Shown piece by piece: positions 1,070-43,655 of a stretch of DNA of 64,000 nt; position 1 is the stretch's first letter, and every line of letters begins with the position of its first letter. Origin of the DNA: Ostreococcus lucimarinus (Eukaryota); the NCBI GenBank assembly GCA_000092065.1, contig CP000590.1. The stretch is one strand, 5' to 3'. The translations under genes were made by a program, and so were the position numbers. The notes under the pieces are model-generated. The model did not search any database. It was not told where the DNA came from and was given only the letters and a program-made list of their open reading frames with translations.

Positions 1070-1109
1070 GACTACGCTGTTGCTGGCTAGGTTACTAATT
1101 TCTGAACAT

Positions 1110-2910: not shown

Positions 2911-3107
2911 CGCGCGCGCGCGCGGGTGTGTGCGGTCGCGTCGTGCGCGTCGATGTCGACACGCACCGCGGCAGAAGCGCGCGCGCGCGGCGCGCGATGC
3001 GCGTTCGCGACGCGAGAGTCGACGCCGACGGCGCCGACGCACCGCCTGGGGCGGTGTACGCGCCGCGCAGACGCGCGAGGACGGCGGAAACGTCGAAGTC
3101 AACGCGG

Positions 3108-26165: not shown

Positions 26166-26924
26166 TCATTCGTTCCTGATATCGCTCAGGATGTTTTCGA
26201 TATCATCCTTCGTAACGACGCCATCGGCGCCCTTTTGCGCAGCCAAACCGGACAGTCTCTGCATGAGCTTATCCTTGAACCCGGCGAACGCGCTCGCCAT
26301 GTTCATCTGCTGATTCATCGGAAGCGTGGCGAACGCCGCCATCGAGGCGTTTTCCAAACTCTCTCCACTCGCCGCATCGAGCGCACCTTGCGCCTCCAAT
26401 ATCTCCCGCATCGTCGTCGGTACGTCCGCGCCGCACCCATCGCCCTCGCACTCGTCGTCATCGTCATCGTCGTCGCCCTCGCGTCGCCAACGAAACACCC
26501 CGTCCTCGTCGGCGTGCGTCAGCTCGCGCGCCTCTCCGCTCAGAAACGACACCTTCCGCAATTCCGCCTCGAACCCATCCCGCGCGTCGTACAACAACGC
26601 GAACGCCGTCCCCGCCTTCGCCTCCCCCTCCGCGTCCCCTTCGCACACGACGCACGGCCACCACGTCACCGCGACTTCGGTTTCGTCCTCGTCTCGCGCC
26701 TCGCCGTCCTCGCCCCCCTCCCCCCGTCCCGGTTCCACCTCCCACTGCACCTCCAACCGATCGCCCGCGCGCACGCGCCTCCCGAACCGATCCACCGCCA
26801 CCTCGACCGCCGCGCGTCCGTCGCTCGCCGCGTCGTCCGCCCTCGCGCGCTTCACCGCCGCCCCGTCGTCCCTCGTCGCGTCTTCGCCATCCTCGCGTTC
26901 GCGTCGCACCGTCGCGCTCGACAT
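26166..26924 (-). CDS. hypothetical protein (possible Tudor/chromo-barrel-like N-terminal fold, acidic linker)
   Basis: 252 aa with ATG at 26922-26924. Motif GDRLEVQWEVE...VTWWPCVV...GTAFALLYDARDGFEAEL. Poly-Asp linker. Conserved-looking C-terminal helix. Confidence 0.4.
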   Translation of the reverse strand: MSSATVRREREDGEDATRDDGAAVKRARADDAASDGRAAVEVAVDRFGRRVRAGDRLEVQWEVEPGRGEGGEDGEARDEDETEVAVTWWPCVVCEGDAEGEAKAGTAFALLYDARDGFEAELRKVSFLSGEARELTHADEDGVFRWRREGDDDDDDDECEGDGCGADVPTTMREILEAQGALDAASGESLENASMAAFATLPMNQQMNMASAFAGFKDKLMQRLSGLAAQKGADGVVTKDDIENILSDIRNE

Positions 26925-27220
26925 CCTCGCGCGGTCCTATCGCTCGCGCGTCGCGCTTCGGTCGTCGCGTCCGTCCGCGTCGCCGTCGCCGTCGTCGCGC
27001 GTCCGCGTGTCGCGCCGCGCGCGCCGCGCAACCATCCGTCGCGTCGTTCGAATCGCGTTTTGAAATTTGAATTCAAACCGTCGGTGCGAATGCGAAAAAA
27101 ACGCGATACGAACCGTCGCACCCCTATTTTTTTAGGGTCGCGCGAAACGACGCTTCGCGACGCTTTGCCGCTTTGCCGCGCGTCGACCGCGACGCGCGAC
27201 ACACGACGACGACGACGACG

Positions 27221-28192
27221 ATGATGACGACGACGACGACGACGACGACGCTGACGACGCTGACGACGGCGACGCGAGGGACGGCGCGACGCGCGACGCG
27301 AACGGTCGCGCGCGTCGCGCGACCGACTTTCGCGAGGGCGACCGCGGTCGGCGGGGCGTCGCGGACGCGAACGACGCGCGCGCGACGGGGCGGCGCGGTG
27401 GTGACGCGCGCGGACGCGCTGGCGCCGCCGGCGGTGTTCGACGCGGCGTGCGCGGCGAGCGAGAAGAAGAGCGCGCAGGCGCCGACGACGACGCTGACGC
27501 TGGGGTTCGCGGCGGGGGCGTTGATTGGCTTGGGCGCGCTGCTCATGACGTGCGTGGGGGGGGCGTCGCCGGCGTTGGCGGCGAATAATCCCGGGTTGAG
27601 CGCGTTCGTGAAAGGCGCGATCGGGCTCCCGGCGGGGCTGACGATGGTGATTCTGACGGGCGCGGAGCTGTTCACGGGGAACGTCTTCGTGATGCTGAGC
27701 GGGGCGCTGAACGGCGTCGCGAACGAGCGTCAAGTGGCGCGGTCGTGGGCGCTTTCGTACGCTGGGAACTTTGCGGGCTCGGTGTTCATGGCGTACATGG
27801 CGTACACGGCGATGACGGCGGCGTCGCCGGCGGCGAGCGCGGCGGCGGTGGGGATCGCCACGGCGAAGGCGTCGCTGCCGTTTGTCGCGGCGTTCACCAA
27901 GGGCGTGTTGTGCAACTGGCTCGTGTGTCTCGCTGTTTGGGGAACGATGGCGACGACGTCGGTGGCGGGGAAGATTTTGGCGATCTTTTGGCCCATCACC
28001 ATGTTCGTCGCGCTCGGTTTCGAGCACAGCGTGGCGAACATGTTTTTGATTCCGCACGGGATGCTCCTCGGCGCAAACGTTTCGTGGGCGCAGATGATGA
28101 CGGGCAACATCATTCCGGTGACGCTAGGGAACATCGTCGGCGCCGCAGTCTTCGTCGCGGGCGTGCACTGGCTCGCGTACGGTAAGAAGTGA
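27221..28192 (+). CDS. NAR1: formate/nitrite transporter family protein (NAR1-type plastid nitrite transporter)
   Basis: FNT signatures LTGAELFTGN and GFEHSVANMF, six TM helices. N-terminal poly-Thr/Arg transit-peptide-like region encoded by (ACG)n. ORF frame opens at 27173; ATG at 27221. Confidence 0.85.
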   Translation: MMTTTTTTTTLTTLTTATRGTARRATRTVARVARPTFARATAVGGASRTRTTRARRGGAVVTRADALAPPAVFDAACAASEKKSAQAPTTTLTLGFAAGALIGLGALLMTCVGGASPALAANNPGLSAFVKGAIGLPAGLTMVILTGAELFTGNVFVMLSGALNGVANERQVARSWALSYAGNFAGSVFMAYMAYTAMTAASPAASAAAVGIATAKASLPFVAAFTKGVLCNWLVCLAVWGTMATTSVAGKILAIFWPITMFVALGFEHSVANMFLIPHGMLLGANVSWAQMMTGNIIPVTLGNIVGAAVFVAGVHWLAYGKK

Positions 28193-28285: not shown

Positions 28286-31189
28286 CTAATAGCGGATGAT
28301 GGCGTCTTCGGGATAACCGAGCGCTTTCAGCGCTGGAATGCACGTGTCTTCCTCGAACGCAGGTGGCCCACACATCACGGCGATGTGCGACGAACCGTTG
28401 GACGGGAAGCCGTGTTGTTGGATGATGGGCAAACTTATGCGCCCGTACGTGACGCGATCCGAGCTCCACTCCGGGCCAGTCTTCCTGTCCGCCGCCCACG
28501 TCTCCTTGGAAATCATGTAGTGCACTTTAAACCGCCCCTTATGCTCGCGCTCGAGACGATCGAGGGTATACTTCAATAGCACATCGTCTTCCGTTTTGTT
28601 GGCGTAAATGAAGGAAAGTTCCGTTTCGTCCTTCTCGTCCGCGAGAACGGCGACGATGAGTTGCAACATCGGCGCGACGCCCGTGCCGCCGCCCAAGAGC
28701 GTCATCTTCTTCACCGGCGGCAAGTCTTTTTTGTCGATGCTAAACAATCCCTGACCGAGATACTTGATGTGACCAACTGGGCCTTTGACGTCAATCTTGT
28801 CACCCTCGTTGAGATGGTGAAGGTATTGTGTCAACGCCCCGCCCTCGGGGTACGCTTCGTGGACGTCGGAATAATAAATCTTAATCACCAGTTCCACAGC
28901 CCCAAGGGTGCCGTTGAGCGAGGAAGGCGTGTACGCGCGCATCACCTTCTTGCCATTCCACTCGCCTCGTAAATATACATGATAACCCACGGGCATACCA
29001 CACTGATGCTCGTCGCTTTCGAGCTTCAAACGCAAAAGAATGGAATCGTGCGACAGCGGAATTTTGTTTTCAATCTTGAGCTGTAACCATTTCTTCGGGT
29101 TCAGCCCGAGTGGAGCGTTTTCGGGCACGATATGCTTTGCACCCGCCCACATGCGATCGAAAGCCGCCGCTTCCGCGGCTTCACCGAGTAACATCTGGCC
29201 GAACGCCTCCTTGTGTTCTTCGTAAAACTTGACGAGATGCACCGGGCCACGTTTGGGCATCGCCGGGAACTCACGCCTGGGCTCGGTTTCGACTCGCTCA
29301 ATTTCGACCGACACATCACTTGAAGCCGCCTGATCTTCCGCACTTCCGACGTCGCCGATATAAAAAGGTTCGAGCTGCTTCCAAGCCTTGGCGCTGTGCA
29401 CGGCTTCGAAATCCTCCGTGGTGTCTTCGCCCGCATTCATGGTAATACTCGCATTACCTCCCGGATGCAGACCTTCCTTCAAGTACGCGTTGACGTCATA
29501 CACCTTACCTTTAACGACAATCCAGCAGTCGTCTTCAGTGTTGTGTTTCTCCACCTCCTCCATGGTGATGTATCTGACATTTTTCTTCGGCGCGGCGGCG
29601 ACGACGGGCGCTTCGTCGGCGGCGTCATTCTTCTGCGAAACTTCTACTTTCTCCGTGTTTACGATCGTCACTTGCACTTCTGAGGCACTCGCACCCACAT
29701 GCCGTTCTTCACCCGCTCGCGCGGCTTCGAGCGCTTCGATCACTGGCTTCCATCCGCCGGCTTCGTTACCCATCCAGCCACCCTTGAGCGCGCCCGGCTC
29801 CGTCGGATGTTCGCATCGAATGTACTTTTGTGCTCTATCGCTCAGCGCCGCGACCGACAGCTTCACGCGGAAGTAGCAATTATTGCCCATACCCATGAGA
29901 TTCCACGTAAAATCTCGCGGCTGCGTGTTGTTCGCTTCGTCCCACGCCCGACACATCACCTCCTTGGCGCTCGCGAGTTCGACGGTGGCGACGTCCAAAT
30001 CCCAAAAGATCCAGCACCAGTGCTTGCCGTACATCGTCGGTGCGAATGGACGACGAATGTTGGCCAATCTCCAGGTGTAACCACCGTCAAGGCTCACCTC
30101 AACGCGCGTGATCGCGCGTCCTCCGCCCGTGTACGCGTACCCTTTCACTTCGTACCGCTCGCGGTCGAGCGGCACGCACTCGTCGTGCGCGGGCGACGCG
30201 ATGGCGCTGTTGATGTTGAGCTCGTTGAAAATGTACTCCGGCTTCTCCCACCAGTTTTGCTTATCCGCCATCGCCGCGTCCACGCCTGGAGGCATGATGC
30301 GGTTATCGCGGAAATGATAAAAGTTGTCGCTCGGATGCTCCGTGACGCGAATCGTCGTGAGGTACTTGATCATTCTGCCGCCGATGTAGCCGGGGATGAT
30401 CAAGCGCACGGGAAACCCGTGATCGGGTCGAAGTGCCTCACCGTTTTGCGCGTAACACACCATGACATCTTGCGCCGGGTCGAGCGCCTTGCTCAAGGGA
30501 ATGCTCGTTCCGTACGTTCCATCCTTACCCTTCGGCAGCTCCCCCTTCGGTCCCTCAAAGCACACAAAGCGTCGCTTCGCCGTCACCTCGGTCACCCCGC
30601 ACTCGGCGAGCAAAATCCGCAGCGGCACCCCGGTCCAGAGCGAGTTCGACAATCCAGCCGCGCCCCATCCGAATCCAATCGTCTTTTCATACATATTCTG
30701 CTCCTTTCTCCGATTTCCCGCGCACACGAGCAAGCACGGCATCGTCATCGCCGGCTTGCGCAACAACGCGTCCATCCCGTACGTCCTCCCCTTGCCCGAG
30801 TCGCTCACCTCCACCCTCACCTCGTGCGCGTCCCACGCGATGTTCTGCGCCGCCCCGTGATTCCTGACGAAGTGCAGCTCCGCCGGCGTCACGCTCCCCG
30901 CCTCCATCAGCGCTCGCAGCGGAGGCTCGCAGTTGAACGGGTGCGTCCCCGTCAGGCGCACCAGGCTCGGGTGTCTCGCCACCCAGTGATCGGGCGTGTT
31001 CAGGTCGCGTCCGTCCGCGCGCGCGCCCTCCGCTTTGGCCCTCGTCAGCGCGCCGCGATGTCCATCGCACGCCAGCAGCGCGCGCTGCACGTCGACGTCG
31101 TCCATCGGCAGCGCGCGCGGTCCCGCGCGCGCGCATCGCCCGTCCTCGTTTCCCTTGACGCGCGCGCCGCGCGCGCCGAACGCGCCCAT
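28286..31189 (-). CDS. NIA: assimilatory nitrate reductase [NAD(P)H], full length (Moco + dimerisation + cyt b5 + FAD/NADH domains)
   Basis: 967 aa with ATG at 31187-31189. Moco domain [38 protein letters not shown]. Cyt b5 HPGGNASI...[37 protein letters not shown]. Confidence 0.95.
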   Translation of the reverse strand: [967 protein letters not shown]

Positions 31190-31779
31190 CGCGACTCGCG
31201 CGCGACGCTCGACGCCTCGAAACGCTCGACGCTCGACGCGCGTCCTCGCGCGTCGTCCGTCGTCGTCGCGTCGCGTCGGAATCTGCCGCCGCGCGCGTCG
31301 TCGCGTCGTCGACTCGACGTCGTCGACGTCCCGCCGCGCCGGTTCGACTCCGCCGACGTCGCGACGTCGCGGTCGGCGCGACCCCGACGCGCGCGCGCCG
31401 ACCCGACGGCGCGATCGCGCGAGTCACGATTCGTCGCGCGCGTCGTTTTTTTTTTTCTCGCCGGCGTCGCGTCCCGCCGCGCCGCGCGATCGGTCGACGC
31501 CCCGGCGACGGGTCGCGCGACAAAGCGTCGCGAAGCGTCGCGACCGCCGACGCTTCGCGTCGCTTTGACCTCGTATGGGCAAACAGTCACACGCGTGTGT
31601 CGACCGCGCGTCCGACGCGCGTCGGCGCCGCACACCGCGACGCTCGGTCGCGAGCGCGCGCGCGTCGACCTCCGGACGCGAGCGAACGCGCTCGAGCGCG
31701 CGGCGCGTCGAGCGACGCGAGGGCGCGTCGAGCGACGCGAGGACGCGGCGCGAGGGATCGCGGGACGACGACGACGACG
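31190..31779. promoter_or_regulatory. divergent (bidirectional) intergenic/promoter region between NIA (-) and NII (+)
   Basis: 590 bp between the two start codons. Contains a T13 run (about 31425-31440) and the 16-mer cgtatgggcaaacagt (31573-31588), which recurs in the cyt-b5/NR2 divergent region. Confidence 0.6.
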
Positions 31780-34755
31780 ATGGACGCGGCGCGAGGGACG
31801 GCGACGACGGCGACGACGGTGAGGCGCGCGGTGCGGGCGCGCGGAGGACGCGCGGTGCGCGAGACGCGCGGCGCGCGGGCGCGGGACGCGCGACGAGGGA
31901 CGCCGCGGGCGGTGGTGGAGCCGGAGGGGGCGTCGGCGGGCGACGCGTCGGCGTCGGCGTCGGCGGGCGACGCGTTGAAGTGGCAGGCCGAGGACGCGGC
32001 GAGCCTGAGGGCGCATAACGAGGAAGCGATCGCGAAATATGCAAACTTTCCGGAGTTGGATAAGCCGGACGCGCACGTGGCGCGAGATGCGGATGGGTAC
32101 TACGTCGTGAAGGAGGAGTGGCGAAAACCGACGAATCCCTTTGAAAAGTTGAAGCTCGCGAAGGATCCGATGCGAGAGTTGATCGGGATGAACGGGATCG
32201 AGGAGATGGCCAAGGCGAGCGCGGCGGATTTCAAGGCTTGGGACGAGGCGTTGAATGACCCGGACGAGACCGATCAACGACCGAAGTGGGCGGGTTTGTT
32301 TCATCGACGCAAAGGACACTACGGGCGATACATGATGCGACTCAAGCTTCCGAACGGACTCATTAACTCGACGCAGATGCGATATTTGGCGAGCGTGATT
32401 AAAAAGTACGGCGAAGATGGGTGCTGCGACATCACGACGAGACAAAACATTCAGCTTCGTGGGGTTGAGTTGAAGGATGCGCCCGAAATCTTGCGCAAAC
32501 TCGAAGAGCTCGGTATGTGCTCGTTGCAAAGCGGGTTGGACAACGTGCGCAACGCGACGGGGAACCCGCTCGCGGGTTTTGATCCGCAAGAAATCGTCGA
32601 CACGCGACCTTACACGCTCGCCATTCAAGATTACGTCACCGGTGGTGGGCGCGGGAATCCAGCCATCGCTAACTTGGGGCGTAAGTGGAACGTGTGCGTC
32701 GTCGGCAGCAGCGACTTTTTCGAGCATCCGGACATCAACGACTTGGCCTTCATTCCAGCGATGAAGGATGGCAAGTTCGGATTCAACATGATCGTCGGTG
32801 GCTTCATATCTTCTCAGCGCGCAGCGGAGTCGGTCTCTCTCGATGCGTGGATCCCTGAGAACGAGCTTGTCGCCGCGACGCACGCCGTGTTGACGACGTT
32901 TCGCGATTACGGCCATCGCGGCAACCGCCAAAAGTGCCGCATGATGTGGCTCATCGACGAGATGGGTTTGGAAACGTTTCGCACCGAAGTTGCGTCGCGC
33001 ATGCCAACGGGAGACTTGGCGCGCGGCGCCGAAGTGGATCTCATCGACCGAGAGTCTCCGCGACGCAGTTACATCGGCGTGCACGCGCAAAAGCAAGAGG
33101 GCTTGAGCTGGGTCGCCGCTGCCGTGCCGGGCGGACGTATGCAACCGGAAGATCTCGCGGAGATGGCTGATCTCGCGGACAAGTACGGCGAAGGTGAGAT
33201 TCGACTCACCGTCGAGCAAAACTTTATCATTCCCCACGTGCCGAACGATAAGATTGACGCCATTCTCCAAGAGCGTTTGTTTCAAGAGTACACGCCGTTC
33301 CCGGGCAAACTTGTGTCCAACATGGTGGCGTGCACCGGAAATCAGTTCTGCGGATTCGCGCAAATCGAGACGAAGCGACAAGCGCTCGAAATGGCGGAAC
33401 ACTTGGAAAGTTGCTTAGAACTTTCGAAGGACGTGCGCATGATTTGGACAGGTTGCCCGAACTCTTGCGCTCCGGTGCAAGTGGCGGACATTGGCCTCAT
33501 GGGCGCGCAGGTGAAGAATCCGACGGGCGAGAAGGGCATGGTACCAGGGGTGAACATCTTCATCGGTGGTACCGTCGGGCCGAACGGCCACTTGAAGGAA
33601 GCGCCAGAAATCGCAAAGGTCCCGTGCTCAGAGTTGAAGCCGGTTCTGGAACAGATTATGATTGAGAGGTTTGGCGCGACGCGCAAGGCGACGCCGACGC
33701 CGAATCCGGGGCGAGCGTCGCGCTGGAAAATCAACAAATCTGCGCAGTATACCAAGGGTGTCCCTAAAGCCATGGGTAAGGCGACGCACATTTGCACCGG
33801 ATGTGGTTACATTTATCAAGAGACGAAGAAGTTCGACGAGTTGCCGGATGACTACGTCTGTCCGTCGTGCAGCGCGCCGAAGTCCAAGTTTGAAGCGATG
33901 AAGCAGGAAGAGACGCCCACGAGCGCTCGCCCGGTCGTGGAGTACCCCGAAGGCACGCTCGCGACGCTGAAGAACGGCGAAACCGTTGAATTGAAGCTCG
34001 TTGAGAAGGAACAAGTGACGTCGAACACTGTACGCCTTCGATTTGAACTCCCGTCGCCGGAGCACATCCTCGGACTTCCCGTCGGGCAACACGTGACGGT
34101 GACCATCGACGGCGTGTCTCGTCCGTACACTCCGATCACGCGCGATGCGGACAAGGGTTTCATGGACCTTCTCGTGAAGATTTATGATCAAGGCGCGCTC
34201 ACGCAAAAGCTCAACGCCGTGGCCGTGGGATCTACCGTAGCGTTCGAAGGACCGAATGGGTTGGTGACGTACAGCGCTCGCGGCGAATTTTCTACGCGCA
34301 ATCCGGCGACGGGCTCTGTGGCGAAGAAATCATGCAAGAACATCGCCATGATCGCCGGTGGTACTGGCATCACCCCTATGCTTCAAGTCATTCGCCAAAT
34401 CTTCAACGATGTCGGGGACACGACGCGGGTCAACTTGTTATTCGCCAACGTCTCCTCGGCGGATATTCTCTTGAAGAAGGAGCTCGACGAGCTCGCGAGC
34501 GCGCACAAAAACTTGACGGTGCACTACGCGATCGACAAGGATGAACCAAACTGGAACGGCGAGGTTGGATACGTTTCAGAGGAAATGATCAAGAAGTGCG
34601 ACTTGCTGAAGCGAGGTGGCTTGATGGACAAATTGTTTTCATCCGCCGACGACACCGCGGTCCTCGTGTGCGGCCCGCCGGCGATGGTTGAGAAAGCCGT
34701 TGTGCCCGCGTTGGACGCACTGAATGTCTCTACAGATTCTCGAATTTTCTTTTAA
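31780..34755 (+). CDS. NII: ferredoxin-type nitrite reductase (siroheme/4Fe-4S) fused to a rubredoxin-like domain and a C-terminal cytochrome-b5-reductase-type FAD/NAD(P)H domain
   Basis: NiR/SiR core (nitrite/sulfite reductase 4Fe-4S domain and ferredoxin-like half-domains). Then CTGCGYIY...CPSC (rubredoxin CxxC pairs). Then RPYTPI, GGTGITPM, CGPPAM (FNR/CBR fold). ORF opens at 31597; ATG (MDAARGT..., transit peptide) at 31780. Confidence 0.9.
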   Translation: MDAARGTATTATTVRRAVRARGGRAVRETRGARARDARRGTPRAVVEPEGASAGDASASASAGDALKWQAEDAASLRAHNEEAIAKYANFPELDKPDAHVARDADGYYVVKEEWRKPTNPFEKLKLAKDPMRELIGMNGIEEMAKASAADFKAWDEALNDPDETDQRPKWAGLFHRRKGHYGRYMMRLKLPNGLINSTQMRYLASVIKKYGEDGCCDITTRQNIQLRGVELKDAPEILRKLEELGMCSLQSGLDNVRNATGNPLAGFDPQEIVDTRPYTLAIQDYVTGGGRGNPAIANLGRKWNVCVVGSSDFFEHPDINDLAFIPAMKDGKFGFNMIVGGFISSQRAAESVSLDAWIPENELVAATHAVLTTFRDYGHRGNRQKCRMMWLIDEMGLETFRTEVASRMPTGDLARGAEVDLIDRESPRRSYIGVHAQKQEGLSWVAAAVPGGRMQPEDLAEMADLADKYGEGEIRLTVEQNFIIPHVPNDKIDAILQERLFQEYTPFPGKLVSNMVACTGNQFCGFAQIETKRQALEMAEHLESCLELSKDVRMIWTGCPNSCAPVQVADIGLMGAQVKNPTGEKGMVPGVNIFIGGTVGPNGHLKEAPEIAKVPCSELKPVLEQIMIERFGATRKATPTPNPGRASRWKINKSAQYTKGVPKAMGKATHICTGCGYIYQETKKFDELPDDYVCPSCSAPKSKFEAMKQEETPTSARPVVEYPEGTLATLKNGETVELKLVEKEQVTSNTVRLRFELPSPEHILGLPVGQHVTVTIDGVSRPYTPITRDADKGFMDLLVKIYDQGALTQKLNAVAVGSTVAFEGPNGLVTYSARGEFSTRNPATGSVAKKSCKNIAMIAGGTGITPMLQVIRQIFNDVGDTTRVNLLFANVSSADILLKKELDELASAHKNLTVHYAIDKDEPNWNGEVGYVSEEMIKKCDLLKRGGLMDKLFSSADDTAVLVCGPPAMVEKAVVPALDALNVSTDSRIFF

Positions 34756-35024: not shown

Positions 35025-35877
35025 TTACGCATATTGCGCTGCGGCGGCGTTTTGCTTCTTGTAATCGTACATCGTACCGGCAGTGGCGACGATGATAGAG
35101 AACGCGATGAAGAAGCTCATCGTGCCGACGAGCGCTTGCGGCAAGCGGTCGTAGGTGACGACTTCGAAGGTGCAAGAAGAATCGTCGCCGTATCGCACGT
35201 AGCCGCTGGAGTCCGATTCCAAGACTTGGATAAAGTACTTGGCCGGCGCGATGTTCAACGGGAGCGGGATGTCGACGTTACCAGTCGCCGACCCGCCCGT
35301 GATGCCCGCTTTGAGATAGTCGGCCTCGACCACGGTTTGCTTGCATCGCTTGTTCTTGTTGACGATGTCTTTCTTCTTGCGCCACGGCTTGGAGGCGAGT
35401 TCGGAGTCGTCGTAGCACAACTTCACCATCATCGTGTTCCCCGACGTCGTGGAAGCACCGGTCCACGCCACGTTGATGGAGTTCAAACCACCCTGCGCTT
35501 TCTACGAACGTGAAAAACAAATAATCAAGTCAGTCTTCGAATCACGAACGAAATCGCCAGCGTCGCCGCGCCCGACCCCCAAAGGACACTCGCGCCGGTC
35601 GAACGCTTATCCGCCCTCGCGTCGTCTCCGCCCGCGCGTCGTCCCCACGCCACCCACGCGTCCACTCGCGCGTCGAGCGCGCGCCCGAATGCGTTATTTC
35701 TCGCGCGGTCGCGCGCACACGCACCGAACCAGCCGCGCACGCCCCGCCGTCGATCGTCGTCGTCACGCCGAGCGTGTTCGACGACATCTCGCTGTACTTG
35801 GTGAACGCGTGCGCGCCGTCCGCGAGCATCGCCGTGGCGGCGAGACCACCGATCAAGAGCTTCTTCAATTCAACCAT
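35025..35877 (-). CDS. NAR2: NAR2/NRT3-like nitrate transporter accessory protein, two exons
   Basis: join(35725..35877, 35025..35501) on the minus strand. Exon 1 encodes a signal peptide MVELKKLLIGGLAATAMLADGAHA|FTKY. Exon 2 encodes the conserved extracellular domain and a single C-terminal TM (MSFFIAFSIIVATAG). Adjacent and divergent to NRT2. Confidence 0.6.
35502..35724 (-). other. NAR2: intron (223 nt) of NAR2
   Basis: Donor GTGCGT after codon 51. Branch-like ACTGAC 31 nt upstream of the acceptor. Polypyrimidine TTGTTTTTCACGTTCG, acceptor TAG (phase 0; an alternative CAG is 9 nt downstream). The in-frame TAG upstream of exon 2 forces an upstream start exon. Confidence 0.6.
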
Positions 35878-36524: not shown

Positions 36525-37958
36525 ATGAAGCTGAACGTCTTCAGCTTTGATCGCCCGCACCACTTGTCCTTCCACATGTCCTGGTTGGGTTTCTTCATCT
36601 CTTTCGTCTCGACGTTCGCGGCGGCGCCGATGATTCCGGTGATTCGTGAAGACTTGGGTCTCACGAAGCCGCAGCTCGGGAACGCTGGTTTGGCGGCGGT
36701 GACGGGTACTATTATTTGCCGCGTGCTGATGGGTACGGTGTGCGACCTCATCGGCCCGCGACTCGGTTTGTCGGTTATTCTTTTGGCCACCGCGCCCTTC
36801 TGCTTCGCCATGGCCATGGTGCAAGGCTTCGAAGGTTTCCTGATCTGCCGTTTGGGCATCGGTCTGGGTCTCGCCACGTTCGTGGCGTGCCAGTTCTGGA
36901 TGTCTTGCATGTTCAACAGCAAGTGCGTCGGTCTCGCCAACGCGACCGCCGCGGGCTGGGGTAACTTGGGCGGCGGAGTCACGCAATTCTTGATGCCGGG
37001 CATCTACGCCATCTGCTACTCGGCGACCAACAGCCGTGCGTTCACTGCCTGGCGTTGGGCGTACATCTTCCCGGGCATGTGCCACACCGTAGTCGGTTTG
37101 ATGGTCATGTACCTCGGCCAAGATTTGCCGGATGGTAACTACAAGGTGCTCACGACTTCGGGCGCGCTCGAAAAGAAGTCCTCCATGAAGGTCAACTTGA
37201 TCGGCATGAAGAACTACCGCATGTGGTGCATGGTCGCCACCTACGGTTTCTGCTTCGGCGTTGAACTCACGATGAACAACATCGTCGCCGGTTACCTCTT
37301 TGATCAATTCGGCGTCTCCCTCTCTGTCGCAGGCGTGTTGGCGTCTTGCTACGGTATGATGAACTTGTTCGCCCGCTCCGTGGGTGGCATCATCTCTGAC
37401 TGGTCTTCTAACCGCTTCGGTATGCGAGGACGTCTTTGGACTTTGTGGTCCACCCAAACGCTCGAAGGTGTGCTGTGCATCTTCATGGGTCTCTCCAAGG
37501 ACAACTTGGGCGCCACCATCGCGTTCATGGTGTTCTTCTCCATTTGCGTGCAGGCGTCCGAAGGCGCTTCTTACGGTATCGTGCCGTTCATCTCCCGCCG
37601 CGCTCTCGGTGTCGTCTCTGGTTTCATCGGTGCTGGCGGTAACGCTGGTGCCACCATCGCCACCGCCGCCTTCTTCACCAAGGATTCCATTGAGACGTAC
37701 GAAGGTCTCCAGTACCTCGGTTACACCGTCATCGGCGTCACCGCTTTGGTCATCCCGATTCACTTCCCAATGTGGGGCTCCATGTTCTTCCCGGCATCCA
37801 AAACGGCCACGGAAGAGGACTACTACATTCACAACGAGTTCACTCCGGAAGAAATCAAAGCTGGTCTCGCCGCTCCGGTCCAAAAGTTCTGCAACAACTC
37901 TCGCAACGAGCGCCCGGTTTGGAAGCGCGAGCAAGATGCGGTTGAAGCCTCCGCGTAA
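36525..37958 (+). CDS. NRT2: high-affinity nitrate transporter NRT2 (NNP family of MFS)
   Basis: 477 aa with 12 TM helices. NNP signatures FHMSWLGFFISFVSTFAAAPMIPVIREDLGLTK and GNAGLAAVTGTI, and a second NNP motif in the C-terminal half. ATG at 36525. Confidence 0.9.
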   Translation: MKLNVFSFDRPHHLSFHMSWLGFFISFVSTFAAAPMIPVIREDLGLTKPQLGNAGLAAVTGTIICRVLMGTVCDLIGPRLGLSVILLATAPFCFAMAMVQGFEGFLICRLGIGLGLATFVACQFWMSCMFNSKCVGLANATAAGWGNLGGGVTQFLMPGIYAICYSATNSRAFTAWRWAYIFPGMCHTVVGLMVMYLGQDLPDGNYKVLTTSGALEKKSSMKVNLIGMKNYRMWCMVATYGFCFGVELTMNNIVAGYLFDQFGVSLSVAGVLASCYGMMNLFARSVGGIISDWSSNRFGMRGRLWTLWSTQTLEGVLCIFMGLSKDNLGATIAFMVFFSICVQASEGASYGIVPFISRRALGVVSGFIGAGGNAGATIATAAFFTKDSIETYEGLQYLGYTVIGVTALVIPIHFPMWGSMFFPASKTATEEDYYIHNEFTPEEIKAGLAAPVQKFCNNSRNERPVWKREQDAVEASA

Positions 37959-38122: not shown

Positions 38123-39550
38123 CTATCGCTGCCCGCCTTCGGCGGACGGTCCCACTTCGAGTCTACGCTGCACCTCCATCAATATGTGCGTCCCGATCCC
38201 CGCGGCGAAACCAATCGCCGTACTCTTAGTCGCGATCGTCACCGCAGCGGTCACCATGACGAGATACTTCTGGTGCTGATGCCATCCGGGTTTCGTCTTC
38301 AAGCCCATGCCAATGAGCTCCAAACTCGACGAAAATAACATGACTCCTAATATAGTCTTCGGAAAGTGCTCCAAGAGCTTCGTTAATGAGCTCCCGAATA
38401 ATAAACCGAGGGCAAGCTTGCACAAGCCGAGGAACACGATCGATCCTCCGCCGCGAGCACCGAAAGCGTACTGAGCCGCTAAACCGCCAGCGCCGTGGCA
38501 CGACGGCATCGCGCCTACCCAACACCCGACGATATTCATCATCCCCACGCTCGTCGCCACTGAGCTCGGCGACGCGGGAAAATCAGGAAACAATTCTTTG
38601 CTCAGTGCACACACGGAGATCACTGAATTTAACGTCGTCAATGGAAGTTGCGGGACGCCGGCGTTTACGATGCCGCGCTTTGCCTCGGACCACGACGCGC
38701 TCAAAATCTTTGGCGTGGCTGGTCCAAACTTCAATCCGCTCAGCGCGCCATCTTTCGTCATGGCCATGGTGATACCGAGCACAACGAGAATAAGCGCCAT
38801 GGGAATGTAGTGACGCATGCGTTTCCGACGTTCGCCATCCGCCTCAAGTTCGCCTCGCTCGTCGCGAATTGCCGGATACTCGGGCGAGCACACATACATG
38901 ACCGCACACATGGCCACGATGGTGACCAGTAGGCCATCCGTGCCAAACATCCCTCGCACCACACTAGCATCGCTCGACGTGTACACCGCGAGTAAAAACC
39001 CTTTCCTGGCGAGCAACAATCCAAGTCCCACTTGCATGCCTTGCACAACCGCGAGCGGCGTCACTTTATTAAACGTGTCCATCAATCTCGTCGTTCCAAG
39101 CACCAACACGATGGAAGACACGAACAAACCGGCGACCATAATTTCGTTGACATTCAACGGCGACTCTCCCAACGCCACCGCCGCGATCGTCTTCATCGGC
39201 TGCACGGGCATGGGTATCTCGTACAGAAACGCCGTGAGCACGTTGTACAATCCCGTGAACACGATTGTCGTCCCCGCGTCCACGCCACACTCGATCGACA
39301 TCCCGACGAGCAGCGGTAAAAAAGTCCCGAGATCTCCAAGCGCGCCGCTCGCCTCTCGCCAACCGAACTCGCGCCAAAACTTTTCCGCGCGCGCGCCGAC
39401 GACCGCCGCCGTCCCGCCGACGCGCCCTCTCGTCGCGCGCAGCTCCGACGCCGTCGTCTCGCCGCGCTTCTCGCGCGCGCCCGCGTCCACGACGCGAGCG
39501 TCATCATCGTCGTCCGCGATGCGAATCTCGTACTCACCCGCGGACGTCAT
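38123..39550 (-). CDS. MOT1: molybdate transporter MOT1 family
   Basis: MOT1 signature motifs PMPVQPMK and FGAMPSCHGAGGLAAQYAFGARGG. Sulfate-permease-like TM core. ATG at 39548-39550. Confidence 0.85.
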   Translation of the reverse strand: MTSAGEYEIRIADDDDDARVVDAGAREKRGETTASELRATRGRVGGTAAVVGARAEKFWREFGWREASGALGDLGTFLPLLVGMSIECGVDAGTTIVFTGLYNVLTAFLYEIPMPVQPMKTIAAVALGESPLNVNEIMVAGLFVSSIVLVLGTTRLMDTFNKVTPLAVVQGMQVGLGLLLARKGFLLAVYTSSDASVVRGMFGTDGLLVTIVAMCAVMYVCSPEYPAIRDERGELEADGERRKRMRHYIPMALILVVLGITMAMTKDGALSGLKFGPATPKILSASWSEAKRGIVNAGVPQLPLTTLNSVISVCALSKELFPDFPASPSSVATSVGMMNIVGCWVGAMPSCHGAGGLAAQYAFGARGGGSIVFLGLCKLALGLLFGSSLTKLLEHFPKTILGVMLFSSSLELIGMGLKTKPGWHQHQKYLVMVTAAVTIATKSTAIGFAAGIGTHILMEVQRRLEVGPSAEGGQR

Positions 39551-39842: not shown

Positions 39843-41078
39843 CTAACCCCCTATCTTGATCATCGCGCGATTATCCTGCGCCGCGAGCTCGTGCATGCCC
39901 GCGTGCGCGGCCTTCTTTCGCTTGACCGCAGCGCCGATGACGCGCAAAATGTCGTCGTCCGACGCGCCCGAGCGCATGGCGTCTCGCAAGCTCACCTCTG
40001 AATTGCCGAATAAACAAACCTTCAAATTACCGTCCGCCATGATGCGTAAGCGGTTACATCCGCCGCAGAATGAGTTCGTCATGCTCGTGATGAAGCTCAC
40101 CGAACCTTTGTGACCGGGCAGGGTGAAGTTCTTCGCGACTTCCTCGCGCGGGTCGTCGACGCGCGTCAACGCGCCGTACGCCTCTTCTATTCTCGCGCGC
40201 ATCTCGGCGTACGACACCATCTTCTTCGTGCTCCACTTATTGCCGTCGAACGGCATGTACTCTATAAATCTCACATTAATCGGCTTGTCTTTCGTCAACG
40301 CCACGAAATCAAGCAGCTCGTCGTCGTTTTGCCCGCGCATGACGACGCAGTTCACCTTGACGCTCTGAAATCCGAGTTCGCACGCCTTGTCGACGCTCGC
40401 CAGTACCCGATCGTGCCCTTTCCTCCGCGTCATGAACTCAAACTTCGCCGGCACGAGCGTATCAAGCGACACATTCAAACGCGTCAATCCGTTCGCTCTA
40501 AGCGCGTCTAACCGCTTCGCGAGCGTCACTCCGTTCGTCGTGACGCTCGTCTCGCGCACCCCCGGCGTCCCGCTCACCCGTCGCACCACGTCTTCCAAAT
40601 CTTTTCTCAGCGTCGGCTCACCCCCGGTGAGCCGCACTTTATCCACCCCAGCCGCGGCAAATATTTTAACCACCCTCCCGATCTCATCCGCGGTGAGCAA
40701 CTCATCCTTCGCCGTCAAATCCACGCCGTCCTCGGGCATGCAATACCCGCACCGCAGGTTGCACTTTTCCGTCAAGCTGATGCGCAGGTAATTATGCCCT
40801 CGCCCGAACGCATCCACGAGTTCCGGCGCGACGTTCGCCGTTCGCGACGTCATCGCGCGCGCGGCGACTCGCGGATCGATTCGCGCCCTCGCCCGCGCGC
40901 CCTCGCCCGCGCGCGTCGGTTCCTCCACCGCTCGCCGCGGTGCACTTTTTGTCCCGAGCGCGCTCACCGCGTCCTCGCGCGCGCGTTCGACGCCCTGATC
41001 GCCGCGCGCGATCGCCGCGAGCGTCGCGCTCGCGCGCCGCGCGCCCGGGCGCGTCCACGCGCCGCGCGCGAGCGACAT
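39843..41078 (-). CDS. CNX2: GTP 3',8-cyclase (molybdenum cofactor biosynthesis protein A, CNX2/MoaA), radical SAM
   Basis: [10 protein letters not shown] radical-SAM cysteine cluster, C-terminal 4Fe-4S cysteines (CGGCNRLR), and MoaA twitch domain. ORF runs to 41324; ATG at 41076-41078 (MSLARGAW, presequence) chosen. The internal Met at about 40832 is an alternative. Confidence 0.85.
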
Positions 41079-41154
41079 CCTCTGACGTCGCTTCGCGTCG
41101 TTTCGCCCTGTCGACCGGACCGCACCGCGCGTCACTCCGTCGCGCGCGCTCGCG

Positions 41155-41937
41155 ATGTCGCGCGCGCTCGAGGACGACCACGGCTCGTTCGCCGTGATAG
41201 ATCTCGTCGCGCACCTGTACCGCGGCGGCGCGGAAGATCGAGGCGCGCTCGCGAAGATTTGGTCGCGGTACAGCGATGCGACGGTTTCAGAGCGGAAGAC
41301 GACAGGTTTCGAGATGGTGCGCATGCATCACGCGACGCTGACGAGGATGTTTCGAGACGGTGCGTGCGACACGCTCAATTTTCGCGAGCGCGACGCGCGT
41401 CGGGACCGAGGGCGCGCGGTCGAGGGACGGGACGCAAAACGGCGCGAGACGGGACGACGACGAGGACGGGCGAGCGGGACGCGACGGACCGACTGACGAC
41501 GACGACGCGTTCGAACGCGAAAAGACCCGGATGGGGATTACTTAGATATCGAAGACGTGCGCATGACGTGGGAAGAGTTCGTGGACGCGCTGAGAGACGC
41601 CACGGGGGCGTCGGCGGATGAACCGGCGTCGCCGGAGAACGCGAAGTCGTACGACGCGCTCGAACGACCGGTGATGCAAAGAAATCAATCGTTCTCGAAC
41701 TTGGCGAAGGATTTGGAGGAAGTCATCGCCGCCGCGCGCTCGCCCGGGACGAGCGCGGACAACACGCCCGAAGGTTCGACGCGTGGGATTCAGAGAATTT
41801 CATCCTCTGGGATGCTTTTGGGCATCGGCTGCTCGAGCCGCGAACCGTCGCTTCGAGGCGGCAACGCGTTTCACGCGGGCATGACCGTGCGCTCGGAAGA
41901 TTTGAAGAGTCGCCTCGAGAAGAACGCGACGCAGTGA
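41155..41937 (+). CDS. hypothetical small protein, two exons; unannotated candidate gene inside the nitrate/Moco cluster
   Basis: join(41155..41359, 41546..41937) gives a 199-aa protein: [25 protein letters not shown]...TLTRMFRD|[23 protein letters not shown].... Both ORFs are in the track as separate pieces. Joining them removes an Arg-rich tail and uses a canonical GTGCGT...ACTGAC...TTAG intron. AT-rich putative 3' UTR follows. Confidence 0.45.
41360..41545 (+). other. predicted intron (186 nt)
   Basis: Donor GTGCGT at 41360, ACTGAC at about 41490, acceptor TTAG at 41542-41545. Phase-1 junction gives GAT (Asp) and continues the downstream ORF frame exactly. Confidence 0.45.
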
Positions 41938-42070: not shown

Positions 42071-43447
42071 ATGCCCGCCGAAACCGAAACCGCGCGCAAG
42101 TACCACATCGTCGGCGACTACGCCACCGCGCTGAACCCTCGAAACGACGCGCGAAGCGTGGAAAAATACGCGCGACACTTGGTGCTGCGTCCCCACGGCG
42201 CGCGCATCCAACGCGCGCTGTGCGCCGCGCGCGTCCTCGTCGTCGGCTGCGGTGGCCTCGGGTGCCCGTGCGCGATATATCTCGCCGCCTCGGGCGTGGG
42301 AACGCTCGGATTGTGCGACGCGGACGCGGTGGAGCTGAGCAACTTGCATCGACAGGTGGGACACTCGACGGCGGCGACCGGGACGTCGAAGGCGAAGTCG
42401 TTGGCGGCGCGGTGCGAGGGATTGAACGATGGCGTTCGAGTCGTGGTGCGAGAAACGTTCGCGACGACGGAAAATGTGATGGAACTTGTGGCGGGGTACG
42501 ACTTGGTGTGCGATTGTAGCGATAATCCGAGGACGAGGTATTTGTTGTCGGACGCGTGCGCGAGCGCGGAGATTCCGCTCGTGAGCGCGGCGTGCGTGGG
42601 ATTTGAAGGGCAGCTCACGGTGCTGTGTGGCACGCGAGCGTGGAATGATGACGATGAATCGTTTGGGGAGTTTGCGCCCGCACCGTGTTATCGATGTTTG
42701 TTTCCGACGCCGCCGGCGTCGGGAGACGCCGGGACGTGCGGGGCGTCTGGCGTGCTCGGACCGCTGCCTGGCATCGTGGGTACTTTTCAAGCGCTCGAGG
42801 CCATGAAAACGCTGGCTGGGGTAGGGGAGTCCATGCGAGGAAAAATGTTAACGTTCGACGCGTTGAGCGCGAGACCGACGATGACGTTGAACATGCGGGA
42901 ACAGCGAGACGCCGCGTGCGCGTGTTGCTCGACGTTGACGTCTCACGACGGACGCTTCGACGTCGCGACGTACGATTACGACGCTTTCTTATCGTCGACG
43001 CCGTGTCCGATGCGCGGAAGAAAAGCGAGACGCGGTGGCGTTGATGTGAACGCGCCGCCGAAGTTTGGGGCGCGAGAAATGCCGGAGCGCGGCGGCGGCG
43101 GCTGGCGACGCGTGGATGCGAAAGCGGCGACGACGTACGTCAAAGATGAGGGCGTCACCGTAGTCGACGTGCGTCCCAAGCACATGTACGACGCAGCGCA
43201 CATACCTGGATCTATTTCGTTACCAATAGAAACGCTCGACGTCGAGACGTGGAACGGCGCCGTGGGCGCGGCGGTTGAAGGATACCGTCTGTGCTTCGTG
43301 TGCGCGGGAGGCAACAACAGCCAAAGAGCGGCGCAATGGTTCGTGGACGCGAAAGTCGCCACCGCTGCCCCGGCGAGCGTCGTCGACGTTTGTGGCGGTC
43401 TCGCCGCGATGCGCGACGCGGGCTACGACGTCCCGAGACTCGATTGA
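42071..43447 (+). CDS. CNX5: adenylyltransferase and sulfurtransferase MOCS3/CNX5 (MoeB/ThiF E1-like domain + rhodanese domain)
   Basis: E1-like nucleotide-binding VLVVGCGGLGCPCAIYLAASGVGTLGLCDADAVELSNLHRQ, CxxC zinc motif, C-terminal rhodanese with active-site CFVCAGGNNSQRA. 458 aa. Confidence 0.9.
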   Translation: MPAETETARKYHIVGDYATALNPRNDARSVEKYARHLVLRPHGARIQRALCAARVLVVGCGGLGCPCAIYLAASGVGTLGLCDADAVELSNLHRQVGHSTAATGTSKAKSLAARCEGLNDGVRVVVRETFATTENVMELVAGYDLVCDCSDNPRTRYLLSDACASAEIPLVSAACVGFEGQLTVLCGTRAWNDDDESFGEFAPAPCYRCLFPTPPASGDAGTCGASGVLGPLPGIVGTFQALEAMKTLAGVGESMRGKMLTFDALSARPTMTLNMREQRDAACACCSTLTSHDGRFDVATYDYDAFLSSTPCPMRGRKARRGGVDVNAPPKFGAREMPERGGGGWRRVDAKAATTYVKDEGVTVVDVRPKHMYDAAHIPGSISLPIETLDVETWNGAVGAAVEGYRLCFVCAGGNNSQRAAQWFVDAKVATAAPASVVDVCGGLAAMRDAGYDVPRLD

Positions 43448-43655
43448 TTAAAATTGTTTCAACGCGCGGCGAGCACTTTATTTCTACAACAACACGCCTA
43501 CGATTCCACGCGCGCTTGCACGATCTCCGGTCGTTCACCCTTGGATTCCGCGGTTTGCATCGTCGCGAGCGCCGCCTCGACGACGCCCTCGGTGAGTTCG
43601 CCGCTCGCGCTCATCGCGTCCACCACCTCCTGCGCCTCTTCGGGCGATTGCGAGT

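Follow-up and report, generated by a model that had tools for sequence, protein, structure and literature searches.

A nitrite reductase gene of Ostreococcus lucimarinus that also encodes rubredoxin and cytochrome b5 reductase-type domains

A single gene in the nitrate assimilation cluster

The window that we analyzed is a 64,000-nucleotide stretch of the genome of Ostreococcus lucimarinus. At 31780-34755 on the plus strand it contains a single open reading frame (ORF) of 991 codons, with no internal stops and a product of 991 amino acids, that begins with a nitrite reductase (NiR). The gene lies within the NAR1-NIA1-NII1-NAR2-NRT2 cluster. O. lucimarinus has no other NiR, and Mamiellales genomes likewise encode no NiR besides the fusion. 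As the sole NiR of the Mamiellales, encoded in the nitrate assimilation cluster, the fusion must be the working assimilatory enzyme. The original prediction described the adjoining gene as a canonical nitrate reductase (NR) with its own domain of the NADH-cytochrome b5 reductase (CBR) type, and Pfam confirms this. The two genes are divergently transcribed, and the intergenic region that they share may have a regulatory role. The GC content at 30001-32000 is 69.5%. The features of the locus are:

28286-31189, minus strand: nitrate reductase NIA1, with Mo-co, cytochrome b5, FAD and NAD domains (Pfam)
31190-31779, between the genes: divergent intergenic region between NR (minus strand) and the NiR fusion (plus strand)
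31597-34755, plus strand: open frame of the NiR fusion; first ATG at 31780
31780-32064, plus strand: N-terminal extension, presumed chloroplast transit peptide (amino acids 1-95)
32065-33687, plus strand: assimilatory NiR core with two NIR_SIR_ferr + NIR_SIR repeats (amino acids 96-636; Pfam and PDB matches)
33331-33468, plus strand: putative cysteine ligands of the [4Fe-4S]/siroheme center, C518 and C524 (CTGNQFC) and C559 and C563 (CPNSC)
33688-33783, plus strand: linker 1, basic (net charge +7) and flexible (amino acids 637-668)
33784-33903, plus strand: rubredoxin domain (amino acids 669-708), C672-x2-C675-G-Y ... C694-P-x-C697-S-A-P-K
33904-33984, plus strand: linker 2 (amino acids 709-735)
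33985-34752, plus strand: CBR-type flavoprotein domain (amino acids 736-991)
34534-34536, plus strand: codon for D919, equivalent to D239 of rat CBR (the pyridine-nucleotide discriminator)
34600-34632, plus strand: 11-amino-acid insertion DLLKRGGLMDK (amino acids 941-951) in the loop before CGPPAM
34753-34755, plus strand: stop codon

The modules thus follow the order transit peptide, NiR core, 32-amino-acid linker, rubredoxin, 27-amino-acid linker and CBR-type FAD/NAD domain. That a NiR core, a CxxC...CPxC rubredoxin-like module and an FNR/CBR-fold domain share one ORF had been proposed originally, and this is borne out by the Pfam matches (all of them above the gathering score) and by the positions of the motifs. 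A stop codon or an intron between the NiR core and the tail had been named as a finding that would overturn the proposal. We can rule out both: no stop is present, and strong purifying selection acts on the junction, which implies that it is coding. Relative to another Ostreococcus (an O. mediterraneus-like orthologue), linker 1 is 97% identical at the amino acid level, with pN = 0.028 and pS = 0.80. For linker 1 and the rubredoxin, pN is 0.03 as compared to a pS of 0.66-0.80 at saturated synonymous sites, and the constraint is as strong as in the NiR core. Furthermore, the motif RWKINKSAQYTKGVPKA in linker 1 is kept as far as Bathycoccus.

The alternative is that there are two genes, NII1 and Cytb5R, and that the long ORF is an artefact, arising by read-through in a genome that is compact and rich in GC. 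The RefSeq protein from O. lucimarinus (XP_001419920.1) is a 633-amino-acid "partial" protein that ends exactly where the NiR core ends; a separate Cytb5R, of unknown role, is drawn in the O. tauri cluster, which is given as NAR1-NIA1-NII1-Cytb5R-NAR2... (Sanz-Luque 2015); and spurious long ORFs are frequent in this GC-rich window. However, besides the lack of a stop and the conservation of the junction at saturated synonymous divergence, neither the rubredoxin part nor the CBR part has a methionine at its start. The same continuous architecture is found in at least 14 proteins from at least three clades, including a transcriptome-derived homologue (P0018, from an MMETSP transcript marked "complete") with all three modules, and UniRef entries of 934 amino acids from Ostreococcus contain all three modules as well. 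Also, the Micromonas gene was analyzed as one model with RNA-seq support (Cuvelier 2017, PMC5344333). We consider separate genes to be hardly credible: the region from the NiR through the flavoprotein is a single continuous coding sequence. The RefSeq model of NII1 from O. lucimarinus is too short, and the tail of NII1 most likely accounts for the "Cytb5R gene" of reviews of the O. tauri cluster, whose relation to nitrate metabolism was described as unknown.

The domains and their conserved residues

The N-terminal extension has no counterpart in the NiR chains in the PDB, whose match begins at amino acid 101. It is weakly conserved among homologues (dN/dS = 0.76, versus 0.04 for the core). 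A transit peptide is predicted by TargetP for the orthologue from Micromonas (Cuvelier 2017, PMC5344333), and we predict that the fusion protein is located in the plastid.

The NiR core is under strong constraint (dN/dS = 0.038). Pfam identifies two stretches each of NIR_SIR_ferr and NIR_SIR (E = 1e-42 and 6e-48), and among PDB sequences, the ferredoxin-dependent NiRs (Fd-NiRs) of tobacco and spinach match amino acids 101-636 with E ~1e-200 (2.8e-203 for tobacco Nii3, 3b0g). An AF2 model superimposes on 3b0n with TM(target) = 0.93 at 54% identity. C518, C524, C559 and C563 are invariant across 14 fusion proteins, and we take them to be the ligands of the cluster and the siroheme, like their homologues in the NiRs of spinach and tobacco. 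As to the substrate, matches to plant NiR (E ~1e-200) are far stronger than those to NirA from M. tuberculosis, which is a sulfite reductase (1e-53), or to SiR hemoproteins (1e-18 to 1e-22). These comparisons place the core in the plant-type siroheme/[4Fe-4S] nitrite reductase family (NirA/NII), with sulfite reductases as more distant relatives.

The second module matches the Pfam family Rubredoxin (PF00301) at amino acids 671-704 with 26.9 bits (cutoff 23) and RUBY_RBDX (PF21349) with 27.0 bits (cutoff 26.5). The small size of these margins reflects the absence from the fused domain of an 11-residue loop that the classical rubredoxins have. Rubredoxins in the PDB (including 1bq8 and 1brf) match all of amino acids 669-708 with E ~1e-7. 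The two knuckles are C672-T-G-C675-G and C694-P-S-C697-S, and C672, C675, G676, Y677, C694, P695, C697, A699 and K701 are invariant in the 14 fusions. Fusions of the Mamiellales type, and some of the others, have serine in place of the glycine after the second knuckle, which the rest retain. With a dN/dS of 0.023 as well, we regard this module as a true rubredoxin minus one loop, with a predicted Fe(Cys)4 site.

The linkers on either side of the rubredoxin are predicted to be flexible. In the AF2 model, pLDDT is below 50 at model residues 550-565 (amino acids 645-660, in linker 1) and at model residues 615-620 (in linker 2). The length and sequence of linker 2 vary among homologues (dN/dS = 0.19). 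Overall, AF2 predicts three well-folded modules with low-confidence linkers between them, which fits a tethered mobile carrier. The arrangement of the domains relative to each other in this model is uncertain (pTM = 0.63).

The third module contains FAD_binding_6 (amino acids 738-831, E = 1e-26) and NAD_binding_1 (amino acids 857-973, E = 2e-28). Pig and rat NADH-cytochrome b5 reductases match amino acids 729-981 with E ~4e-59 (3.5e-59 for pig 1ndh), and the predicted fold is similar to that of CYB5R3 (TM(target) ~0.9). The FAD motifs of the CBR family, RxY(T/S)xx(S/T) and GxxS/T, are represented by R781-P-Y-T-P-I-T and G805-A-L-T, its NAD motifs, GxGxxP and CGPPxM, by G860-G-T-G-I-T-P and C964-G-P-P-A-M, and its C-terminal aromatic residue by F991. 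Invariant in the 14 fusions are R781-P-Y-T-P785, G860, G861, G863, T865, P866, D919, C964-G-P966 and F991. All of the motifs that were originally listed are present, namely CTGC at 672, CPSC at 694, RPYTP(I) at 781, GGTGITP(M) at 860 and CGPP(AM) at 964. The cysteine ligands and the GGTG motif are intact, as the cysteines and G860-G861-x-G863 are invariant in the 14 homologues (the motif is GGSG in one clade).

Although the donor was originally given as NAD(P)H, we predict that NADH is preferred over NADPH, because D919 is the equivalent of D239 in rat CBR. D919 aligns with the aspartate of pig CBR ("hyaiDkd" versus "wytvDra") and is present in 14 of 14 fusions; the CBR domain of NIA1 has serine at this position. 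In rat CBR, the substitution D239T changes NAD use to NADP use (review table citing Marohnic 2003). Pfam finds no cytochrome b5 domain in the fusion protein. The tethered partner of this CBR-type domain is the rubredoxin, and its similarity to CBR does not necessarily imply b5 reductase activity.

The window protein shares the lineage-specific 11-amino-acid insertion before CGPPAM with P0002 and P0179; the remaining fusions lack it, as does CBR. The AF2 pLDDT of this region is low. It is not an unspliced intron, as it is 33 nucleotides long, lacks GT..AG, and is kept as protein in related Ostreococcus. We also ruled out that the fused CBR domain is a duplicate of the one in the neighboring NR: it is 32% identical to the NR domain and 42-46% identical to free NADH-cytochrome b5 reductase 3, and in a neighbor-joining (NJ) tree the CBR domain of NR falls outside the group of fused and free CBR.

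Relatives in green algae and bacteria

According to the original prediction, such a fusion had been described for Mamiellales. Indeed, it was published under the name NIRFU for Micromonas, O. tauri and Bathycoccus (Cuvelier 2017, PMC5344333). The fusion itself is thus already known, and the window gene is its O. lucimarinus orthologue (NII1). The NIRFU proteins (Micromonas commoda XP_002507511; O. tauri, B. prasinos, M. pusilla) share its family, domain order and setting in a nitrate cluster. O. lucimarinus is missing from the NIRFU paper (Cuvelier 2017, PMC5344333), probably because its RefSeq model stops at 633 amino acids. The Ostreococcus proteins lack a 9-amino-acid loop in the FAD domain, and the clade of the window protein has the 11-amino-acid insertion. 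What we add is the wider occurrence in green algae, the analogous bacterial fusions and the NADH-type aspartate.

The 14 fusion proteins are 46-86% identical to the window protein, with every metal ligand and every flavin or nucleotide motif invariant, and full-length fusions from Ostreococcus and Bathycoccus are 64-88% identical to it. Outside the Mamiellales, at least two more green-algal clades have the fusion, which is present, for example, in Chlamydomonas sp. UWO241. Some close relatives (P0020, P0025-28, P0045) appeared to be unfused. However, their gene calls are of the prokaryote style and leave the reading frame past the NiR core, linker or rubredoxin, and they do not speak for the existence of unfused forms. 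NJ trees speak only in part for a single origin of the fusion: in a sample without named unfused chlorophyte NiRs such as NII1 of C. reinhardtii, 83 of 100 bootstraps separate all of the fused NiR cores from the other ones, but the CBR domains of the fusions do not form one clade.

The Fd-NiRs of plants and cyanobacteria (NirA; spinach 2akj, tobacco 3b0g) have the same four cysteine ligands and the same repeat structure as the fusion core, which is 54-57% identical to them. However, they end with the core and need free ferredoxin, whereas the fusion runs on for 355 amino acids with a carrier and a flavoprotein. In this respect it resembles eukaryotic NR (NADH→FAD→cyt b5→Moco), which also has an N-terminal catalytic domain with a one-electron carrier and a CBR-type domain hinged to it; the carrier is cytochrome b5 in NR and rubredoxin in the fusion. 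NirB/NiiA, from bacteria, fungi and some algae, catalyzes the overall reaction that is expected of the fusion, the NAD(P)H-driven six-electron reduction of nitrite at siroheme/[4Fe-4S] by a single polypeptide, but its reductase module, which precedes the NIR_SIR core, is unrelated (Pyr_redox_2 FAD/NAD and BFD-like [2Fe-2S], as in P0324 and P0339). Pfam finds neither of these domains in the window protein, which may function in a similar way but is not a member of NirB/NiiA. The NADPH-sulfite reductase of E. coli (SiRFP + SiRHP; PDB 1aop, 9c91) pairs a siroheme/[4Fe-4S] hemoprotein, from the superfamily to which the NiR core also belongs, with a pyridine-nucleotide flavoprotein donor, but these are separate subunits, the reductase is a diflavin (FAD/FMN) protein, there is no rubredoxin, and the substrate is sulfite.

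There are also analogous, uncharacterized bacterial fusions in which NirA is followed by a linker of similar length, a CxxC..CPxC(A/S)A..F element and a pyridine-nucleotide flavoprotein. Two of these (P0385 and P0360) have NirA, CxxC..CPxC, Rieske and FAD_binding_6/NAD_binding_1 domains, and two others (P0354 and P0329) are built in the same way but with Pyr_redox_2/Rubredoxin_C. They have NrfH/NrfA neighbors. They differ from the algal proteins in their low identity (~30%), the extra Rieske domain and a flavoprotein that is not of the CBR type. Their cysteine module is shorter and zinc-ribbon-like, and it could be either homologous to the algal module or convergent with it. Together, the bacterial and algal NirA fusions suggest a recurrent, self-sufficient design.

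Electron supply to the nitrite reductase

The fusion was originally predicted to reduce nitrite independently of ferredoxin. As stated, this is unsupported: the core is closely similar to Fd-dependent NiRs, it belongs to the sole NiR, and the published hypothesis is of dual input from ferredoxin and NAD(P)H (Cuvelier 2017, PMC5344333). We found no enzymology for any fusion member in the searchable literature, and we infer the loading of the cofactors and the direction and path of electron flow. In the reading that we favor, with moderate confidence, a chain built into one plastid-targeted NiR (NADH→FAD→rubredoxin→[4Fe-4S]/siroheme) adds to the input from ferredoxin. NADH, in preference to NADPH, would transfer a hydride to FAD, which would reduce the tethered rubredoxin one electron at a time; the rubredoxin would then swing to the NiR core and reduce the [4Fe-4S]/siroheme center. 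Reduction of nitrite to ammonium takes six electrons and would consume 3 NADH per nitrite. The logic would be that of the neighboring NR, with cytochrome b5 replaced by rubredoxin. The NADH route would probably supplement ferredoxin (such as in the dark or under a shortage of its reduced form) and not replace it.

The potentials of the carriers are a difficulty. Rubredoxin potentials are usually near -80 to +50 mV, and in spinach NiR, the [4Fe-4S] cluster is at about -365 mV and the siroheme at about -290 mV. The alanine after the second CPxC-G/S presumably puts the window rubredoxin in the higher-potential class. Because typical rubredoxin potentials are far above those of the NiR centers, the step from rubredoxin to the cluster would, in the absence of tuning, run ~0.3 V uphill. 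Also, NADH is not the main stromal reductant in the light. Finally, Mamiellales have only Fd-GOGAT (Sanz-Luque 2015), so full assimilation of nitrogen would still depend on ferredoxin, which weakens dark assimilation as a rationale.

Alternatively, the NiR might be strictly ferredoxin-driven and the tail might have another job: a safety or repair chain (for the re-reduction of oxidised or NO-blocked siroheme, or for disposal of O2 or NO), an outlet through which over-reduced ferredoxin or NiR passes electrons to NAD+, or redox-sensing regulation. The core shares its fold as well as its sequence with Fd-dependent plant enzymes, and a high potential would suit a rubredoxin that accepts electrons, or one that donates them to species of high potential; bacterial NADH:rubredoxin reductase and rubredoxin classically serve enzymes that detoxify O2 or NO. 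In Micromonas, the orthologue is expressed more strongly in high light, under which ferredoxin is not in short supply (Cuvelier 2017, PMC5344333). Nevertheless, Pfam finds no additional catalytic domain for O2 or NO chemistry, the tail has been kept with NiR across deep green-algal clades, and bacterial NirA has reductase fusions too, for which the simplest reading is electron supply. To our knowledge, every known CBR-type fusion (NR, Ncb5or) passes electrons forward from NADH. We therefore think it unlikely that the NiR relies on ferredoxin alone. The uphill relay could also be avoided if FAD reduced the [4Fe-4S] cluster directly and the CxxC..CPxC element were mainly a structural adaptor, possibly zinc-binding, by which the flavoprotein docks to the NiR. 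The narrow margin over the Pfam threshold, the missing loop, and the even shorter, zinc-ribbon-like bacterial counterparts would all be consistent with this. But the algal domain keeps G-Y after the first knuckle, an aromatic core, "LPDD(Y/F)xCPxC" and A-P-K..F, it matches rubredoxins of known structure, and two long flexible linkers are more in keeping with a carrier that shuttles than with rigid docking, so an adaptor seems quite improbable to us.

A bolder version of the NADH route is that the NiR, the sole one of the most abundant picoeukaryotic green algae in the sea, is NADH-driven with ferredoxin optional. The fusion would then be no peculiarity of the Mamiellales but an old design of green algae (at least three deep clades, including a member of the Chlamydomonadales) with bacterial counterparts to its NirA and Cys4 modules, and thus part of an overlooked class that spans bacteria and algae. 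This is possible but doubtful, and if it were true, it would require tuning of the rubredoxin potential to an unusually low value. The mismatch in potential is a concrete biochemical question, and UWO241, other green algae and the bacterial NirA fusions form a comparative set from which to pick proteins to assay.

In textbooks, the reduction of nitrite in plastids is ferredoxin chemistry that is linked to light. If the built-in NADH route is real, then nitrite reduction would be partly uncoupled from photosystem I in such major primary producers of the ocean as Ostreococcus, Micromonas and Bathycoccus. This would bear on their use of nitrate in the dark or in low light, on nitrite excretion and on iron economy.

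One reading frame for nitrite reductase, rubredoxin and flavoprotein

The open reading frame at 31597..34755 (+ strand) has its first ATG at 31780, has no internal stops, and encodes 991 amino acids. Pfam identifies these domains:

Pfam domains of the 991-aa protein
N-terminal to all other domains: two NIR_SIR_ferr/NIR_SIR repeats
aa 671-705: Rubredoxin / RUBY_RBDX, slightly over the curated thresholds
aa 738-831: FAD_binding_6
aa 857-973: NAD_binding_1

A search against PDB sequences matched aa 101-636 to the ferredoxin-nitrite reductases of tobacco and spinach (E ~1e-200), aa 669-708 to rubredoxins (E ~1e-7), and aa 729-981 to NADH-cytochrome b5 reductase (CBR) from pig, rat, and human (E ~1e-58). 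The cluster motifs of nitrite reductase (NiR) are CTGNQFC at 518 and CPNSC at 559, and the motifs quoted in the original prediction are all present (CTGC 672, CPSC 694, RPYTPI 781, GGTGITPM 860, and CGPPAM 964). Its claim that a NiR, a rubredoxin, and an FAD/NAD flavoprotein share one ORF is borne out to the base: the finding is real and its outline was correctly read.

The current annotation misses the C-terminal part of this protein. XP_001419920.1 from O. lucimarinus CCE9901 ("predicted protein, partial") is identical to the first 633 residues of the ORF (31780-33678) and ends exactly where the NiR core ends ("...ERFGA"). This RefSeq model is truncated: it lacks the last 358 residues, which are the rubredoxin and CBR parts (33679-34755). 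The surrounding genes agree with the published cluster of O. tauri, which a 2015 review gives as NAR1-NIA1-NII1-Cytb5R-NAR2-NRT2-MOT1-CNX2-CNX5 (PMC4620153).

Genes surrounding the NiR fusion
27173-28192 (+): NAR1
28286-31189 (-): NIA1, nitrate reductase (NR)
31780-34755 (+): NiR fusion
35025-35486 (-): NAR2
36525-37958 (+): NRT2
38123-39550 (-): MOT1
39843-41324 (-): CNX2
42071-43447 (+): CNX5 (ThiF + rhodanese)
43656-44798 (-): ORF with a cytochrome b5 domain
44984-46324 (+): sulfite-oxidase-like Mo enzyme that lacks b5 and FAD domains

Molybdenum-related genes run on past CNX2, starting with CNX5 (42071-46324). In Bathycoccus (locus L004), a second Oxidored_molyb/Mo-co_dimer gene adjoins NR, upstream of the NiR fusion (1-627, -, and 1073-4222, +). 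Many long ORFs rich in Arg and Ala lie across the real genes of the window in different frames or on the opposite strand, at 29699-31822 (+), 31045-33402 (-), 26852-28057 (-), and elsewhere; they result from a GC content of 55-70% and are not genes.

The 2015 review treats the tail as its own gene, Cytb5R, and describes its relationship to nitrate metabolism as unknown (PMC4620153). We rejected the idea of two separate genes (NII1 and Cytb5R) for several reasons. No stop codon separates the NiR from the tail, and the tail does not begin with a Met. Comparison with the O. mediterraneus-like orthologue (locus L003) shows saturation at synonymous sites (pS 0.6-0.8), yet pN is 0.028 over the 32 aa of the junction (aa 637-668, nt 33688-33783), which is coding-like constraint; the rubredoxin (dN/dS = 0.023) and the NiR core (0.038) are equally constrained. 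The junction peptide is kept as far as Bathycoccus. Metagenomes, genomes, and transcriptomes together supply 14 full-length proteins with the continuous architecture, among them an MMETSP transcript that is marked as complete (P0018) and Ostreococcus UniRef entries of 934 aa. Finally, the neighbourhood of NR, NiR fusion, NAR2, and NRT2 is kept in L003 and in Bathycoccus. Most likely, the "Cytb5R" of the cluster diagrams is the tail of NII1.

Conservation, structure and distribution of the fusion

We aligned 14 fusion proteins that are 46-86% identical to the window protein. The four NiR cysteines are invariant, as are the four cysteines of the rubredoxin along with G676, Y677, P695, A699, and K701. 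Invariance extends to R781-P785, G860/G861/G863/T865/P866, and C964-G-P966 in the flavin and nucleotide motifs, to D919, and to F991 at the C terminus. Except for an 11-residue loop deletion, the rubredoxin can be aligned with its classical counterparts. An 11-aa insertion ahead of CGPPAM (DLLKRGGLMDK, 34600-34632) is restricted to some Ostreococcus clades. The flavoprotein domain of Ostreococcus has also lost a 9-aa "xxNPKFPAG" loop, around aa 801-805 (nt ~34180-34194), which is kept by all of the other fusions and free CBRs that we compared.

AlphaFold2 modelled aa 96-991 with a mean pLDDT of 85 and a pTM of 0.63; the low-confidence stretches are the two linkers and the lineage-specific insertion. 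The NiR part superposes on tobacco Nii3 (TM 0.93) and the tail on CYB5R3 (TM ~0.9). A fold search with this model found no solved structure that spans the whole fusion. As modelled, the protein would comprise three folded modules on flexible tethers, whose relative arrangement is not confidently predicted. The architecture, the ligands and their conservation, and the tethering are observed features of this protein.

The genome paper for O. tauri (Derelle 2006) reportedly mentions extra domains as well. The fusion was published under the name "NIRFU" for Micromonas commoda, in a paper without structural or functional data (PMC5344333). When 15 billion proteins were clustered at 50%, the full-length fusion formed two clusters plus fragments. 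We found two further clades: one is metagenomic, with ~51% identity to the window protein (P0016, P0017, and P0019), and the other, at 44-48% identity, contains an MMETSP transcript and a protein from Chlamydomonas sp. UWO 241 (P0024). P0024 is a full NiR-rubredoxin-CBR fusion of 953 aa, encoded by an intron-containing 6.3-kb gene (VFSX01000150.1; L001, 10001-16363). Its host is a psychrophilic alga of the Chlamydomonadales, beyond the Mamiellophyceae range given in the literature. Seemingly unfused close relatives were broken gene calls, and we rejected them. In neighbor-joining (NJ) analyses, the NiR cores of all fused proteins split from streptophyte and other NiRs (83/100 bootstraps), and the CBR parts showed no resolved grouping.

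A Mamiellales-type fused NiR with 63% identity (P0013, MDA9098096.1) occurs in Tara data and on contigs as long as 264 kb. NCBI names it "ferredoxin--nitrite reductase [bacterium]". Probably, a picoeukaryote contig was binned into a bacterial MAG.

Origin and predicted cofactor preference of the tail

The nearest match to the fused flavoprotein domain is free eukaryotic NADH-cytochrome b5 reductase 3 (42-46% identity). Identity with the CBR domain of the neighbouring NR is just 32%, and NR lies outside the group of fused and free CBRs in the NJ tree, so we rejected a local duplication of the NR domain as the source of the fused one.

D919 aligns with D239 of rat CBR, and a review table reports that the D239T mutation switches rat CBR from NAD to NADP. 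The C-terminal CBR domain of NR (28286-29200, -) has a serine at this position ("YMISKE"). Because of these residues, the fused domain is predicted to prefer NADH. The comparison suggests that NR might use NADPH or have dual specificity and that the NiR tail is NADH-type.

Proposed electron input and related systems

The best-supported reading, which we consider somewhat probable, is a built-in NADH input chain: electrons would pass from NADH to FAD, to the Fe(Cys)4 of the rubredoxin, to the [4Fe-4S]/siroheme centre, and to nitrite. We infer the cofactor content, electron path, donor preference, and localisation of the fusion. NR has an analogous built-in chain, in which cytochrome b5 takes the place of the rubredoxin; NirB and NADPH-sulfite reductase are functional analogues.

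Three points weigh against this chain. Typical rubredoxin potentials are ~0.3 V above those of NiR clusters. We found no enzymology of the fusion in the literature that we searched. Mamiellales have Fd-GOGAT only (PMC4620153), so ferredoxin is still needed downstream. For these three reasons, nitrite reduction "independent of ferredoxin", as originally proposed, is not supported; the more cautious claim is that NADH provides an extra input. The tail might instead be protective, an outlet, or regulatory, with catalysis still driven by ferredoxin, which we consider unlikely; that its Cys4 site is a structural adaptor, with electrons going from FAD directly to the cluster, seems more improbable still.

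An exhaustive search found bacterial NirA-type proteins (~30% identical) that carry a short CxxC..CPxC(A/S)A..F module C-terminal to the core. In P0385 and P0360, the module precedes a Rieske domain and then an FAD/NAD domain of FNR-like type; in P0354 and P0329, it precedes Rieske domains and a Pyr_redox_2 domain resembling rubredoxin reductase, in no fixed order. P0374 also belongs with these NirA-type proteins that carry the module, a Rieske domain, and a flavoprotein. One bacterial NirA fusion (locus L002, 8001-10889) adjoins NrfH/NrfA-like cytochrome genes. True NirB-type enzymes (Pyr_redox_2, BFD [2Fe-2S], and NIR_SIR) also turned up in the search and are clearly different. To our knowledge, the bacterial architecture has not been described.

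The fusion itself was already known. Our analysis adds that the gene model of O. lucimarinus is truncated, with "Cytb5R" most likely being the missing tail; that the fusion extends beyond its published taxonomic range; that NADH is the predicted donor and the tail is not derived from NR; that bacteria have analogous fusions; and that the rubredoxin relay step carries an explicit thermodynamic caveat. Because Mamiellales have one NiR gene per genome (review table, PMC4620153), the fusion is their working assimilatory enzyme.
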